From a virus, in the IMG/VR virus record IMGVR_UViG_3300047443_000115, positions 1 to 64,000 of that record: 64,000 nucleotides of DNA; one strand, written 5' to 3'. The notes under the pieces are model-generated. The model was not told where the DNA came from and did not search any database. It was given only the letters and a program-made list of their open reading frames with translations. A program made the translations under genes and the position numbers. Below are positions 25,035 to 32,727 of the stretch, in pieces; position 1 is the first letter of the stretch; every line of letters starts with the position of its first letter.

Positions 25035-25783
25035 TAGTAGCGCTGCCGGAAGCCGACCTTCGCCAACTCGGCCGCGACCTCGTCCTTCGGGGCGCTGCGG
25101 AAGTCGGTCGCAGGTGCAGGCAGACGCGGCCCCTGGCCCGGGTCAGGCTTCGGCTGACGTACCGGCTTCTTCTCCGGCTCCGGCGCGACTGGCTCGGGCT
25201 TGGCCCAGTGGGGCTTGCGCTCCAGCAGGTCAGCCAGCGCTGCCTCGATCGCGTCGGTGTCGATCTCGCCGTCCGAGTCGACGTAGTCCTTGACGTCGCG
25301 CATCAGCACGTCCACGGCGTCGCCGACGTCGGCGAACTGGCCGACGGCCAGCACCTTCACCTCGGCCTGCACCGCTCGCGCGGTCGCCTTCGTGGCCTGA
25401 TCGGTGAGCCGCTCAGCCCTCGCCTTCTGACGGTCCAGCTCGGACTTGTCGCGGTCCTCGAAGTCCTGGACCTTCTGGGCGAGGTCGGCGAGCTGCTTCT
25501 TGGCCGTCGCGGCTTCTTTCCTTGCTGCAGCCCTGTCGGCCTTCATGCGCGCAAGGGCCCTCTTGCCCTCGTCGCCGAGCTTGTCAGCGCCCTCCGGCTC
25601 AGGGTCCGGGTCCGTGGGATCGGGATCCGGGTCCGGCTCAGGATCGGCCGGGTCGGGGTCGCCCTGGGGGTCGACAGGATCCGGGTCGGCCGGATCCACC
25701 GGGTCGGGGTCGTCGTGTCGGTCGAGCCGGAACCAGTCCGCGCCCTGGGCAGCGGACAGCCAGCTTTTACGGATGCTGTGCAT
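25034..25783 (-). CDS. Capsid scaffolding protein
   Basis: D/P-rich N-terminus, coiled coil, KPDPGQG C-terminal motif. Confidence 0.85.
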   Translation of the reverse strand: MHSIRKSWLSAAQGADWFRLDRHDDPDPVDPADPDPVDPQGDPDPADPEPDPDPDPTDPDPEPEGADKLGDEGKRALARMKADRAAARKEAATAKKQLADLAQKVQDFEDRDKSELDRQKARAERLTDQATKATARAVQAEVKVLAVGQFADVGDAVDVLMRDVKDYVDSDGEIDTDAIEAALADLLERKPHWAKPEPVAPEPEKKPVRQPKPDPGQGPRLPAPATDFRSAPKDEVAAELAKVGFRQRY

Positions 25784-25843
25784 GGTGGGGTGTCTCCCAT
25801 TGCGGGATTGGTCTCGCACCGTTGCGGCGCAAGAGGTCTGTGA

Positions 25844-26122
25844 TCAGCGGGCCTTTGGCGGTTGCCCAGTCCCGGGATAAACGTCGCCGCCCAGAATCGC
25901 GGCACGTCGGGCAGCGACATGGCTCTGCTCAGCGGGGCGGGTGGTCTGGAGGCGCAGTAGCTCCTCGATCAGTTCCGTCTTCTCGCGCTCCGCCTGCTTG
26001 CATCGCTTTTGCCACTGCCGAGCGCGAGCCCGCCAGTACTCGACCGTCCCCGCCTCAATGTCAGGATCGATTTCGTCGAGCTGGCCATCGGAGGACGTTG
26101 CATCCCCATCGGAAGGCGCCAT
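25844..26122 (-). CDS. Hypothetical protein
   Basis: ORF with GGAG RBS within the head operon. Confidence 0.55.
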   Translation of the reverse strand: MAPSDGDATSSDGQLDEIDPDIEAGTVEYWRARARQWQKRCKQAEREKTELIEELLRLQTTRPAEQSHVAARRAAILGGDVYPGTGQPPKAR

Positions 26123-26177
26123 TGCGGCTCCTTTGGTAGCGGTATCCGAGGTGCCGGAGAACGGCCAAGAGTGAGAC

Positions 26178-28157
26178 TCAGACGCTCCAGCCCAGATAGC
26201 CGTATTGGCGGAGCAAACTGATGGCCTCGTCGCGGCTACCGGCGATGCGATAGATCTGCTCAGGCAGCAGACGCGGCGAGGAAAGTTGGAAACGCCTGGG
26301 GTACCGGGGCGAAGCCGTGCCCGCCCGATAGGCGCGCGACCGCTCCATCTGGAAGTACAGGCCGCGGCGCGTGGTGCCCTCGTAGGTGGCGCGCAGTCGG
26401 CCGCCGTAGCCGTCGGCCGCGGTGTACATGCCGCGGCGGGCGTTGACGACGGAGTTCATGTCTGCGCCGTCCCGGATCGCCTTCGCCCCGGCCTGGGTGA
26501 AGATGCGGTCCTGCTCGGCGCGGGACAGGCCCTTGAAGTAGGCCTGCGGATCGAACGCGCCGGGGATGTGGCGGTCACGAGCGATCAGCTTTGCGGGCAT
26601 ATGCGTACAGTCACAGTTTGATACAATGAGACTGTTCGCAACGTGCCACCCCTCGACCGAAGTGAGGCTGTAAACGTGCCCGCTCCACTCGCTCCGGCGA
26701 AGCTCGACTACGCGATCGAGCTCTACCTGTCCGGAAAGCCGATCCAGGAGATCGCGACCTTGGCGGGCATATCCGTCACGCGTTTCCACCGAGAACGAGT
26801 CTCCCGGGGCATCCCATCGCGGAAGACCCGCGATCTCCCCATCAGTGAAATCGCGTCCGCCTACCTCAATGGAGCCAGCGAGTTCGCGCTCGGCAAGCAG
26901 TACGGGGTGTCCCGAAATGTCATCGCGCGCCGCCTCGCGGAAGCCGGAGTACAGCGGCGTGACGCCAGTGAAGCTGGCGTTGTCAGGGCGGCCAAGTTGA
27001 GCGCTGGCGAGCGCAAGACCCAGGCCGCCGCCGCCAACCGGGCCGCCCGATTGCGTCGCGTCCCACAGATTCAAAAGCATCGACGCGCGCTCGGCATCGA
27101 ACTGGCCGGTCAAGCCCAGTCCTCCGGCGAGGCCGAGTTGCACCAACTTCTTGCCGACCGTGGCCAGATTGCCACTCGCCAGCGCGCGATCGGCGTATAC
27201 AACGTCGACCTCGCCTTGCTGCCCGTCGCCGTGGAAGTCCTCGGTGGCGGTTGGCATGCGGTCAAGACCGTGCACGCTGAGCGCACCCCATACGTCCTCG
27301 ATGAGGGATGGCATCTCGTGATGGTCTGGGACTACGAGGGGCGTAGCGCCCTCGGGGCGGGTGCTGCGGACTACCTCGTCGCCTTCTTGGATGAGGTTCG
27401 CCGGAACCCACCCGCGACTTGTCAGTACCGGGTGATTTCCGGTCAGGGCGAGGTTCTGGCCGCTCGCGGTAGAGAGGACAATGAGTTCCCCTTGGAACCA
27501 CCGCCGCGTGGCCGCCTGTGACCTAGGCCCCGACACCACCACTCCGGCCGGGAAGCAGCGCGGATGCCGTTGGAAGCCGGTATTCCAGCCGTACTCACGT
27601 CCGGCGAGGACGATGCACCGACTGCACGCGGGCGGGTTGACCACCCGGATATAGCCGTTGATCGTGCGGTTCCCCGCGATCGACACCCCGGTGGCCGCCC
27701 TCCCGGCGTCCGTGACCTCCGACGCCGCCATGCGCAGCAACTGCTGCAGGCCCGTCATCATCGCCTCGACCTCATCGACGCCTGCCGCGATGGCCGTCTT
27801 CGACGTGATGAGCGGCAGATCCAGCAGCGTGTCCAGCGACCGACCATCAGCAGCAAGCCCAGCGAAGGCCTCTGGACGGACACGGCCCGCGGGATCCGAA
27901 CTCAGACCCCGTGCCGCGATGATGGACTCGACGTAGGCGTCTGCGGCTGCCGCCGTAGCCAACTGGCCGGCGGTCACCGTGCGGACCACCTCCGGGCCGA
28001 TGTAGATGGCCCACGAACGGCTCAGATCGCGGCGGTCGATCTCCCGCCACAACTGCTGAACCCGGTCCGCCACCCGGCGGGCATGCGACTGCTGAGCCAC
28101 ATAGAAGGCGTTCGCGAGCTCCTCGGCCGACAAATCCCGCACCGACCCCGTGGCCAT
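26178..28157 (-). CDS. MuF/VG15-like minor head protein interrupted by an intein (345 aa after splicing)
   Basis: ACSRCIVLAG...FQRHPR|intein|CDCTHMP; splicing restores the HPxCDC motif. Confidence 0.85.
   Translation of the reverse strand: MATGSVRDLSAEELANAFYVAQQSHARRVADRVQQLWREIDRRDLSRSWAIYIGPEVVRTVTAGQLATAAAADAYVESIIAARGLSSDPAGRVRPEAFAGLAADGRSLDTLLDLPLITSKTAIAAGVDEVEAMMTGLQQLLRMAASEVTDAGRAATGVSIAGNRTINGYIRVVNPPACSRCIVLAGREYGWNTGFQRHPRCFPAGVVVSGPRSQAATRRWFQGELIVLSTASGQNLALTGNHPVLTSRGWVPANLIQEGDEVVRSTRPEGATPLVVPDHHEMPSLIEDVWGALSVHGLDRMPTATEDFHGDGQQGEVDVVYADRALASGNLATVGKKLVQLGLAGGLGLTGQFDAERASMLLNLWDATQSGGPVGGGGLGLALASAQLGRPDNASFTGVTPLYSGFREAARDDISGHPVLLAERELAGSIEVGGRDFTDGEIAGLPRWDAPGDSFSVETRDGYARQGRDLLDRLSGQVELDRVVELRRSEWSGHVYSLTSVEGWHVANSLIVSNCDCTHMPAKLIARDRHIPGAFDPQAYFKGLSRAEQDRIFTQAGAKAIRDGADMNSVVNARRGMYTAADGYGGRLRATYEGTTRRGLYFQMERSRAYRAGTASPRYPRRFQLSSPRLLPEQIYRIAGSRDEAISLLRQYGYLGWSV
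26619..26627 (+). promoter_or_regulatory. Extended -10 promoter TGaTACAAT for the antisense endonuclease gene
   Basis: Antisense of intein codons ATT GTA TCA (I-V-S), which are rare in a ~70% GC genome; ~50 bp upstream of a GTG start with GAGG RBS. Confidence 0.55.
26676..27521 (+). CDS. Antisense-encoded putative homing endonuclease: two HTH repeats plus Vsr/DUF559-like PD-(D/E)XK nuclease
   Basis: AIELYLSGKPIQEIATLAGIS; AYLNGASEFALGKQYGVSRNVIARRL; SSGE...RAIGVYNVDLAL..VAVEVLGGGWH...R...LDEGWHLVMVW. Confidence 0.8.
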   Translation: MPAPLAPAKLDYAIELYLSGKPIQEIATLAGISVTRFHRERVSRGIPSRKTRDLPISEIASAYLNGASEFALGKQYGVSRNVIARRLAEAGVQRRDASEAGVVRAAKLSAGERKTQAAAANRAARLRRVPQIQKHRRALGIELAGQAQSSGEAELHQLLADRGQIATRQRAIGVYNVDLALLPVAVEVLGGGWHAVKTVHAERTPYVLDEGWHLVMVWDYEGRSALGAGAADYLVAFLDEVRRNPPATCQYRVISGQGEVLAARGREDNEFPLEPPPRGRL

Positions 28158-29590
28158 CAGGCCACCTCCGCGGGTTCGGGATCAGCCTCAGGCATGACGG
28201 GATCGGGCGGAGGCTTCGGGCCCGCCTCCAGCGCCGAGAAGTCGCCCGCCATGATGCGCTGCATCGCGTCCTGCGCGGCGGCCTCGTCCTCTTCCTCCAT
28301 GCGCTCGATCTGCGCCTGCGTGTACCGCAGGTCTTCGCGCGTCTGCCGGAGAGGCACGATCTTCGCCTGGAACTTCTTCACCGAAGCGTCCGCGACCTGC
28401 GCCACCGTCGGAGTTGAAGCGTCCCGCCAGATCGTCTCCAGTGACCGGGCCGCCGGATCCCACTCGCCATCCTTCACTCGCAGCACAAGCCGCATGACGC
28501 GCTCCCACGAGCCGCCCCACGCCCGCTGCTTCCGCTCCGCGCGCTTCACCAGGCGGGTCTCGCTACTGCGGATCGCATCCGCCGAGGCCGGGTTCTGGGT
28601 GCTGTAGCCCAGGAACTGCGGAGGTAGACCGGACAGGCTGGAGACCAGCTGCGCGAGCTGATTCAGCGTGCTGTGGAAGTTGCTGAGCGACGCTTCCGGG
28701 AACTGGACGACATCCGCGCCATCCTGCTTGGAGCGCTCCGTCGCCCACATCCGGCCGATGATCCGGCTGAACGCCGACACCCGACGGCCGGACTCATCGA
28801 CGAAGTCCTCCTCGCCGAAGCCGAACGCCACGCGCCGCGGCGTTGCGTGATACTCGGCGCTGACCATCATGTCCGTTGCGATCTTGCAGGCCGCGTCGGA
28901 CAGTGGGATGACGTCCTGGAGCTCCGACACACCGCCCGGACACTTCAGGCGCGGCCGGTTCGGCAGCACCTCGACCAGAACCTCGCCCGTCTCGTGCTCA
29001 TCCCTCGGATACTCCGGATCCTCGACCCAATGACCCGACTCCTTCACCCACCACACCGTGGCGTCCGGCAGGTACAGCGTCGCGTGATCGACCTTCCGGC
29101 CCTCGTCGCCGTCCTCCTGCCAGCGCTTCACCGCAGCCGCCACCCGACGCGTCCGAGGATCGAACTCCGCGAACATGTCCAAGGCGCTCTCGACGGTGAT
29201 CAGCGGCGTCGAGTCGTCATCCTCGTTCGCGCCCACCACGATGTACGAGCGCCGCATCGCCAGGGCATCCAGGTGCCCCATCTGCGACTGCTCGTCCATG
29301 TCATTGGCCTGCCAGATCCGCCAGAGCTCGTCATCGGCGTCCGCCACGCCGGGGAAACGGAAGCCCTCCACGTCCAGGCGCTCCTCGATGCTGTCGACGA
29401 TCAGGCGCGGCCAGTTGATGACGACCTGGCGAACCGTCTCCTGCAACTCCACCTGAAGCTCCGGCGCCATGTACGACAGCGGCTGAGAGCCCTCGTAGTA
29501 GGAGTTCAGGCGCTTGAGCTCGTTCAACTCCTTGTCGTGGCACGAGATCAGGTGAGTCAGCCACTGCAGCTCGGAGCGCTCCACAGGCAC
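28157..29590 (-). CDS. Portal protein (SPP1 gp6-like)
   Basis: YYEGSQPL, NWPRLIVDSIEERL, IWQANDMD, NPASADAI motifs. Confidence 0.92.
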   Translation of the reverse strand: MPVERSELQWLTHLISCHDKELNELKRLNSYYEGSQPLSYMAPELQVELQETVRQVVINWPRLIVDSIEERLDVEGFRFPGVADADDELWRIWQANDMDEQSQMGHLDALAMRRSYIVVGANEDDDSTPLITVESALDMFAEFDPRTRRVAAAVKRWQEDGDEGRKVDHATLYLPDATVWWVKESGHWVEDPEYPRDEHETGEVLVEVLPNRPRLKCPGGVSELQDVIPLSDAACKIATDMMVSAEYHATPRRVAFGFGEEDFVDESGRRVSAFSRIIGRMWATERSKQDGADVVQFPEASLSNFHSTLNQLAQLVSSLSGLPPQFLGYSTQNPASADAIRSSETRLVKRAERKQRAWGGSWERVMRLVLRVKDGEWDPAARSLETIWRDASTPTVAQVADASVKKFQAKIVPLRQTREDLRYTQAQIERMEEEDEAAAQDAMQRIMAGDFSALEAGPKPPPDPVMPEADPEPAEVA

Positions 29591-31722: not shown

Positions 31723-32508
31723 TCAGCCGATCAGGAGCAACTGCTCCCCACCGCCCCGATTCCCCTTGGCGCTGTTGCAGCCCAAGTGAGCGAGGCGGAC
31801 GTTTGAAGGATCGTGCGCTCCGCCTTTCGACAAGGGCACGACGTGATCCAGGCTCGCGCTCCGCACATGGGGCCACGCGATCTTCTTGCCGACCCGGGTT
31901 TTACAGATGTGGCAGCGCCAGTGATCCCGATCAGCTATCCAAGCCAGAATCACAGGCTCGCCAGTAGAGGCGGCCACCTTCTGTGCCCGGCGGCGGTGGT
32001 ACTGGTCGCGGCGGGCATCGGTCCACGGTCCAGGCTTCTGCCGGCCATCAGCGCGGGACTCACGGTTGTACAGCAGCTTGCCGTGCTTCTCCGAGCAGCA
32101 GCGCTGGCGCTCGCTCTTCGGCTGGAACTCCAGGCCGCAGCCGGGGAGGGCGCAGGCGCGAAGCGGAAGAGGGAGCGCACGGATTGCGCCGGAGTTGATC
32201 GCCCAGCACCGCGCAGAGCAAAACTCCGACTTCCGAGGCTCGCACAGATCCACCGAGCACGTTCTACAACTGACGGGGCGCTCGGGGAGTCGATGCCGAT
32301 CGCGGCATTCCACCGAGCAGAACAGCGACTTCAGCGACAGCTGATCAATCTCAACCTGGCAGTACCGGCACCATCGGAAGAGCCTGACGAAGTCATTCGG
32401 GTGCAGCCTGGCGAAGTTCTTGCAACTCCGACTGCACCAGTCGTAGCGCCCGAAGGGGAGTGGGGCTACGCACCCACGGCAAGAAGCTTTGAGGTAGGAA
32501 AGATCCAT
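31723..32508 (-). CDS. HNH endonuclease with repeated Zn-finger modules (probably a selfish element)
   Basis: Repeated CxxC...(W/F)CSxxC; CHIC...SLDHVVPLSKGGAHDPSNVRLAHLGCN. Confidence 0.88.
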   Translation of the reverse strand: MDLSYLKASCRGCVAPLPFGRYDWCSRSCKNFARLHPNDFVRLFRWCRYCQVEIDQLSLKSLFCSVECRDRHRLPERPVSCRTCSVDLCEPRKSEFCSARCWAINSGAIRALPLPLRACALPGCGLEFQPKSERQRCCSEKHGKLLYNRESRADGRQKPGPWTDARRDQYHRRRAQKVAASTGEPVILAWIADRDHWRCHICKTRVGKKIAWPHVRSASLDHVVPLSKGGAHDPSNVRLAHLGCNSAKGNRGGGEQLLLIG

Positions 32509-32727
32509 CAGATCTCCAGATGAGCGAGGCCCCTCGGCGTCTGGAGTCGCCAGCGGGGCCTCTGACCCAAGGGAGCTACCCTCGGGATGGTTACGGATGG
32601 TAGCAGTCTACCGGATCCGCAAGTTGATCATGAAGTTTAGAACCCTCCTGACCTGGCAGCCACCTCCCCGGCGGTCCTTCGGCCGCCGGCCTGCAGGGCA
32701 TAGCCCCGCCCCCTCAGCCGCCCGCCG

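Follow-up and report, generated by a model that had tools for sequence, protein, structure and literature searches.

Candidate promoter and ribosome-binding signals for an antisense homing endonuclease in the splicing-block codons of a phage intein

How is a gene expressed when it lies backwards inside a late structural operon that is transcribed in the opposite direction? This so far unexplained problem is posed by an intein on the 64,000-nt stretch of DNA analysed here (the window; positions 1 to 64,000 of IMG/VR virus record IMGVR_UViG_3300047443_000115). The window is phage DNA with a guanine plus cytosine (GC) content of 69%, and its head and packaging genes lie on the - strand. The intein interrupts a MuF-like head gene and carries, on the opposite strand, an open reading frame (ORF) for a homing endonuclease. 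An earlier note on this DNA had proposed that a promoter and a ribosome-binding site for the nuclease are written into the C-terminal codons of the intein. Based on a comparison with homologous loci, we interpret the intein as a mobile cassette in which the choice among synonymous codons of the splicing blocks supplies the signals of the antisense nuclease, a reading to which we assign, on sequence evidence, a probability of about 0.7. The features on which it rests are the following.

26619..26627, + strand: extended -10-like element TGATACAAT, antisense of the block G Ser-Val-Ile codons (TCA-GTA-ATT), with the hexamer TACAAT at 26622-26627.
26633..26636, + strand: predicted transcription start, placed by the usual spacing of 6-9 nt past the -10 hexamer.
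26664..26667, + strand: Shine-Dalgarno (SD) core GAGG, antisense of the block F Ser-Leu codons (AGC-CTC), 8 nt before the start codon.
26676..27521, + strand: antisense homing-endonuclease gene, 281 codons plus stop, with N-terminal helix-turn-helix (HTH) repeats and a Vsr/DUF559-like PD-(D/E)xK domain.
26616..27557, - strand: class-1-type intein of 314 codons (942 bp), read from the translation, with its +1 Cys at 26613-26615.
26178..28157, - strand: MuF-like head morphogenesis or minor capsid gene of 659 codons, host of the intein, identified from the ORF and its translation.

The -10 box, the GAGG and the in-frame GTG of the + strand all fall within the last 21 codons of the intein, and the GTT at 26616-26618 of that strand is the antisense of the C-terminal Asn codon AAC. 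The positions given in the earlier note for TGATACAAT, the GAGG and the GTG at 26676 are exact, and its description of the block G codons as rare is borne out by codon usage in the head and packaging genes of this phage (2072 codons in all): GTA accounts for 1.9% of Val, ATT for 5.4% of Ile and TCA for 5.1% of Ser, and NTA codons of any kind are used 6 times in the 2072. The motif is correspondingly scarce. Across the 64-kb window (128 kb of strand) TGnTAnnnT occurs twice, TACAAT once and TAnnnT 82 times, so that about 0.001 occurrences of TGnTAnnnT are expected by chance within the 57 nt that separate the intein end from the start codon. The other TGnTAnnnT of the window, TGCTACCAT at 32597-32605 on the - strand, is overlapped by TAGACT and sits between genes, some 89 nt ahead of the ATG (32508) that opens an ORF of 261 amino acids (31723-32508, - strand).

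Primary sigma factors use extended -10 (TGnTATAAT) and -10-only (TAnnnT) promoters, and -10-only promoters are common in Actinobacteria. The block G element resembles both types in its sequence, in the fact that a -35 box is not required, and in conservation that centres on T-12, A-11 and T-7; it differs from them in that the candidate motif sits in the coding region of the opposite strand. With these three bases in place, the hexamer qualifies as the predicted -10 box of an extended -10 or -10-only promoter of the sigma-70 type.

Is the motif maintained in related inteins? The loci compared (14 viral, 2 genomic, 59 metagenomic and 7 from annotated phages) reduce to 45 lineages once near-duplicates are removed. 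A TAnnnT begins 48-54 nt before the start codon in 44 of these non-redundant lineages, against a background of 0.00115 per nt and strand in the same loci, or about 0.03 expected per locus, and a -10-like motif is present in 12 of the 13 clusters formed at 50% protein identity. Conservation of TAnnnT at this place in homologous inteins is what the earlier note had anticipated. The outcome that it had named as fatal, GC-rich synonymous codons beside an intact antisense ORF, was not what we found: the Val codon is GTA in 25 of the 25 closest lineages (2.0 bits at the wobble position), while fourfold sites in nearby invariant Ser, Ala, Gly and Val codons carry all four bases and only 0.2-0.5 bits. 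T-12 is a pure wobble choice and is invariant. The Ile codon is ATT in 84%, ATC in 12% and ATA in 4% of lineages, each of which preserves TAnnnT. At the penultimate Ser codon, TCA makes up 60% in the close lineages against 5% genome-wide, and CGA, AGA and GGA variants are common at this position; the TG extension appears enriched relative to codon usage, and closure of the + frame by TGA may be a further reason for its presence.

In distant clades the residues have changed and a -10-like hexamer is retained as TACGAT, TACTAT, TATACT, TATGCT or TACACT; TATAAT arises from Ile-Ile-Thr/Ala-His-Asn, while TAGACT, TAGGTT and TAGGAT arise from the rare Leu codon CTA. The Gordonia phages Sedona and ViaConlectus have TACCAT, shifted to a different register. 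Low-GC hosts, in which a bare TAnnnT would lack significance, show the full textbook extended -10 TGnTATAAT: TGCTATAAT in a Salmonella Jersey-like phage and in L057, and TGTTATAAT in Aaphi23, L050, L063 and L066. In Sedona, ViaConlectus and the Rhodococcus phage REQ3, an antisense Vsr-like ORF is likewise preceded by TAnnnT and an SD sequence. Such turnover of forms argues that the motif is maintained, and not carried along by inheritance alone. The end of the intein itself differs between clades. The penultimate residue is Ser in the actinophage clade, giving a Ser-Asn end in place of the usual His, and the distant clades (Salmonella, L050, L057, L063, L066, Malisha) end in His-Asn and have the -10 box one codon deeper inside. 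The Ser codon TCA is the source both of the TG of the extended -10 and of the in-frame TGA that closes the + frame. Taken as a prediction from sequence, the promoter proposed in the earlier note receives strong comparative support.

The predicted translation start is conserved along with the -10 box. The GTG at 26676-26678 faces a block F His codon on the other strand and is in frame with the ORF 26643-27521, whose frame is closed upstream by the TGA at 26619-26621. Starts at this codon are found in 26 of 29 aligned homologues; of the 45 lineages, 30 have ATG there and 15 have GTG. We rejected the GTG at 26643 as a start, as ATG or GTG stands there in some lineages only and GTA, ATA, GAA or AAA in others. 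GAGG or GGAGG precedes the start at a fixed distance (GAGG-N8-ATG/GTG is conserved), and a four-base SD core is present in 33 of the 45 lineages compared with 10% of background 12-mers. The Leu codon opposite the SD sequence is CTC in 72% of lineages; the usual Leu codon of the phage is CTG. These properties identify the site as a putative SD-led translation start. A metagenomic relative (L044:1321-2382) keeps TGATACAAT and GGAGGTT and has ATC at the start position of an otherwise intact ORF; this ATC might serve as a non-canonical start or signal that decay has begun.

Could the leader be conserved for its RNA structure? Within 26650-26667 of the + strand, a CCUC that is the antisense of the conserved block F Gly-Glu is able to pair with the GAGG of the SD sequence 9 nt downstream. 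The predicted fold of the leader is no more stable than that of shuffled sequences (z 0.44), and RNAalifold predicts no pairs in the leader across 25 lineages. Sequestration of the ribosome-binding site by a CCUC:GAGG hairpin was dropped as weak and unsupported by the shuffles and the alignment fold and, since no conserved leader structure emerged, so was a structural reason for the nucleotide conservation.

A number of observations weigh against the reading that we favour. A two-hexamer promoter scan of 25500-28500 returned 0 sites; it found nothing at the intein end because a -35 element is absent, and the scan detected no TTGACA-like -35 box 16-18 nt upstream of the -10 hexamer. The TG extension, present in the window at 26619-26620, is shared by 24 of the 45 lineages, and the window's own start codon is GTG rather than ATG. 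In L053 and L020 the ORF is kept without a TAnnnT at the block G position. Two of the key bases, A-11 (the second base of the Val codon) and T-7 (the first base of the Ile codon), are fixed by the amino acids, so the independent signal comes mainly from T-12 and partly from -9. Furthermore, the lineages are related and the counts overstate their independence. Finally, we found no relatives devoid of the nuclease gene: all 119 phage matches to the intein N-domain lie within the set of nuclease matches.

The argument also presupposes that the + ORF encodes a protein. The ORF (26643-27521) lies wholly within the intein, codon facing codon, with + position 1 opposite - position 3, and the nuclease ORF is the antisense counterpart of intein residues 13-294, a stretch that includes block B and some of block F. 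A large protein database holds 158 homologues, mostly of 280-285 amino acids, for which several sources give the name very-short-patch-repair endonuclease. Their alignment displays two HTH units followed by a core YNVDLA..PVAVEVLGGGWH..K..H, in which D189, E198 and H205 never vary and K208 hardly does. Among 29 relatives, PF18741 is matched by 14, DUF559 by 3 and HTH_7 by 16; the window's own nuclease protein stays below every Pfam cut-off. A profile of the nuclease matches the Protein Data Bank (PDB) entry 3hrl with an E value of 0.0026. A tblastn search found the protein in 122 phage records, and at four loci that we inspected the nuclease lies antisense within a gene for MuF, a minor capsid protein or head morphogenesis. 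The hosts of these phages include Gordonia, Salmonella, Pseudomonas, Klebsiella and Aggregatibacter. The antisense frame stays open for 250-300 codons even at low GC (Aaphi23 43%, L066 46%, Salmonella 49%).

Which of the two overlapping proteins is under selection? In a codon alignment of 26 lineages, differences over + codons 41-220 are highest at + position 3 (0.45-0.66) compared with + position 1 (0.28-0.50), and in the centre of the overlap the + protein is less divergent than the - protein (for instance, 0.39 against 0.63). The pattern reverses where the + frame faces block F (+ codons 1-40) and blocks A-B (+ codons 221-281); there the intein frame is the better conserved. This reversal implies that both proteins are under selection, with the dominant constraint switching along the DNA, and the switch accounts for a conserved nuclease C-terminus, QYRVI.G.G.LLA, that mirrors the intein block B L.LT..HP.L. 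Nuclease identity exceeds linker identity in every lineage, and the splicing ends are better conserved than the exteins. On these comparative grounds, the + ORF is a real gene.

With these data in hand, other explanations of the conserved bases can be weighed. The TAnnnT block might be a nucleotide signal of a different kind, either an operator bound by the nuclease through its HTH domains or by a phage regulator, or a rare-codon pause on the sense strand at the C-terminal splice junction, with the nuclease mRNA starting at another place, such as within the C-extein or beyond the head gene on its downstream side. The HTH domains of the nuclease and the rarity of the block G codons in this phage would suit such a signal, as would the extension of the conserved block past the hexamer in close lineages (TACAATGAGACTGTT). 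Selection for codon rarity is nevertheless a poor fit to the data, since the Val codon is only ever GTA and never GTT, which is rare as well, while neighbouring positions accept the common codons ATC and TCG. Moreover, what survives in distant lineages is TAnnnT alone, in other registers and from other amino acids, the phages of enterobacteria and Pasteurellaceae show the textbook TGnTATAAT, and the C-extein flanks are unconserved. We consider a signal of this kind unlikely.

A motif without any function has still less to recommend it. A hydrophobic block G gives an A-rich antisense, two of the three key bases are dictated by the Val and Ile residues, and the intein might come from a donor of lower GC, in keeping with a GC content of 58.5% in 26600-26799 against 69% for the window. 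A by-product of this sort would hardly hold the GTA wobble invariant in 25 of 25 lineages beside wobble sites that are GC-rich and saturated, recur in 44 of 45 lineages against 0.03 expected per locus, or be retained with turnover in 12 of 13 deep clusters, and we judge it improbable. The most sceptical position holds that the + ORF is never expressed and is an antisense echo of the conserved intein frame in a high-GC genome, so that the 'signals' upstream of it are meaningless. The two frames are exactly opposed (+1 against -3), which is the register that leaves most spurious open frames in high-GC DNA, and the window's own protein falls under all Pfam cut-offs. An echo, however, should not concentrate central substitutions at + position 3 and leave the + protein the less divergent of the two (0.39 vs 0.63), keep nuclease identity above linker identity in every lineage, or remain open for 250-300 codons at 43-50% GC; nor would it yield PF18741 and DUF559 matches in relatives and a predicted fold that matches Vsr with a Z of 10.6 (Gosselin et al. 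2025, bioRxiv 10.1101/2025.01.02.630785). We regard an unexpressed echo as scarcely credible.

What are the implications of embedded expression signals for the mobility of the element? In all 25 close lineages for which scoring was possible, the + stop falls within the intein, 15-36 nt from its N-terminal end, and in close lineages the -10 box starts one to three codons in from the C-terminal end. The earlier note had placed the signals wholly inside the intein, and the -10 box, SD sequence, ORF and stop are internal in every close lineage scored. A -35 element would fall in C-extein DNA, which is itself unconserved and has no TTGACA-like hexamer; all sequence-specific signals are consequently internal to the mobile unit. 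A terminator search past the stop of the + ORF gave no hit. The mobile element is probably equipped with expression signals of its own, and the two consequences put forward earlier, namely that it would be self-sufficient after homing and that its transcript would be antisense to the head mRNA, follow from this geometry.

We propose the following mechanism. The block G codons ATT-GTA(-TCA) would present TACAAT, with a TG before it, on the + strand, and this -10 element would be read by the host RNA polymerase with its primary sigma factor, without recourse to a -35 box. The transcript would begin about 7 nt past this element (about 26633-26636), with a leader of about 40 nt that contains the GAGG SD sequence, itself derived from the block F codons AGC-CTC; translation from the GTG at 26676 would then yield a nuclease of 281 amino acids with HTH and Vsr-like parts. 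The nuclease presumably cuts intein-free MuF alleles at the HPxC/xC-coding site, and repair would copy the whole 942-bp cassette into the cut allele. As the -10 box, SD sequence, ORF and stop all lie within these 942 bp, copying by repair would transfer an expression-ready unit. The nuclease transcript, if made as predicted, would of necessity run antisense to the mRNA of the late head gene.

How does this model relate to known systems? Full inteins with an antisense VSR-like nuclease have been described in minor capsid genes of actinobacteriophages (Gosselin, Arsenault & Gogarten, bioRxiv 10.1101/2025.01.02.630785). The window element shares with them a MuF or minor capsid host gene, a contiguous intein, an antisense Vsr-like ORF, a nuclease with an extra helical N-terminal part and an in-frame linker without recognisable fold, and its sequence places it within the definition of an antisense VSR-like homing-endonuclease (HEN) intein given in that preprint (Gosselin et al. 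2025). Expression is untreated there: neither 'promoter' nor 'start codon' appears in its text (0 occurrences of each). Our analysis goes beyond that description by locating candidate expression signals in blocks F and G and by extending the family from actinophages to phages of Salmonella, Pseudomonas, Klebsiella and Aggregatibacter. Antisense LAGLIDADG ORFs in the inteins of Synechocystis DnaX and Chloroflexus SpoVR-like proteins (Gorbalenya 1998; Gogarten et al. 2002) are cited in the preprint; in these a homing endonuclease again lies on the strand opposite an intact intein, whereas the nuclease family (LAGLIDADG) and the hosts differ. In fractured genes, which the preprint also cites, a free-standing Vsr-like homing-endonuclease gene lies between the halves of a split intein (Dassa et al. 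2009, PMC2677866). There, as here, a Vsr-like nuclease is tied to intein mobility and expressed as its own gene, but the host gene is in two and its product spliced in trans, whereas the window has an uninterrupted host frame, with a nuclease gene and putative signals that overlap the opposite coding strand.

A further parallel comes from RNA-level elements. Phage group I introns can hold homing-endonuclease genes with their own promoters, such as I-TevI in the td intron of T4. Like the intein proposed here, they are self-splicing mobile elements that move a nuclease gene and its transcription and translation signals as a unit. In introns of the I-TevI type, however, the signals lie in non-coding loops and are free to evolve, whereas each signal base in the intein would also serve a codon of a splicing block. 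A full-text literature search returned no paper on the expression signals of antisense intein nucleases; a 2026 preprint on an out-of-frame homing endonuclease of dnaX was outside its coverage. The antisense Vsr-like intein architecture itself is already known, and what appears to be new is the embedding and conservation of the predicted expression signals.

It is possible, and we offer this tentatively, that these roughly 60 bp, in which three layers are co-maintained (the splicing residues of blocks F and G and, on the opposite strand, the -10 box, SD sequence and start), reflect an old rule of design that holds generally for antisense-nuclease inteins in phages of Actinobacteria and Proteobacteria. 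The influence of this triple code might extend to the splicing residues themselves, as in the change of the penultimate His to Ser, which creates a TGA that serves as both TG extension and in-frame stop. Antisense transcription from such an element might in addition time or damp head-gene expression. If a conserved promoter, ribosome-binding site and start are indeed derived from wobble choices in the splicing blocks, they would explain how the nuclease is expressed as well as the autonomy of the element after it invades a new host gene. The locus would be a natural example of overlapping constraints, in which protein splicing, transcription initiation and translation initiation bear on the same bases, and synonymous recoding could separate the functions of the two strands. 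It would also supply an annotation rule for more than 100 phage genomes with an unannotated nuclease gene.

The host protein of 659 amino acids matches PHROG 1522 with an E value of 1.8e-87, and Pfam VG15 with an E value of 1.3e-05 and 25.9 bits, where the cut-off is 26 bits; relatives of the gene are annotated as MuF-like, minor capsid or head morphogenesis. The intein comprises Cys1 (CFPAGVVV), block B LALTGNHPVLT, block F HVYSLTSVEGWHVANS and block G LIVSN, and the - strand at the C-terminal splice junction reads ...HVYSLTSVEGWHVANSLIVSN/CDC (a slash marks the splice point). When the intein is excised, the MuF motif HPR-CDC is whole again, and the junction HPR/CFPAG...LIVSN/CDC is kept in 24 of 25 close lineages. 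The Pfam Intein_splicing match is weak (E 0.0035). By its C1, the TGNH of block B and the ...SN/C end, the sequence has the marks of a class 1 intein, whose splicing is predicted.

The nuclease gene is unannotated or partly annotated in the GenBank entries of Aaphi23 (L001), Salmonella phage vB_StyS-sam (L002), Gordonia phage Malisha (L003) and Fosterous (L004); in vB_StyS-sam only a fragment of 134 amino acids is annotated, as a hypothetical protein. In Rhodococcus phage REQ3 (L080), a short intein is accompanied at 1965-2588 by a shortened Vsr-like ORF that lacks the HTH part and runs antisense to the minor capsid gene; this ORF starts with MATANT... and has TACAGT and TAGAAT upstream.

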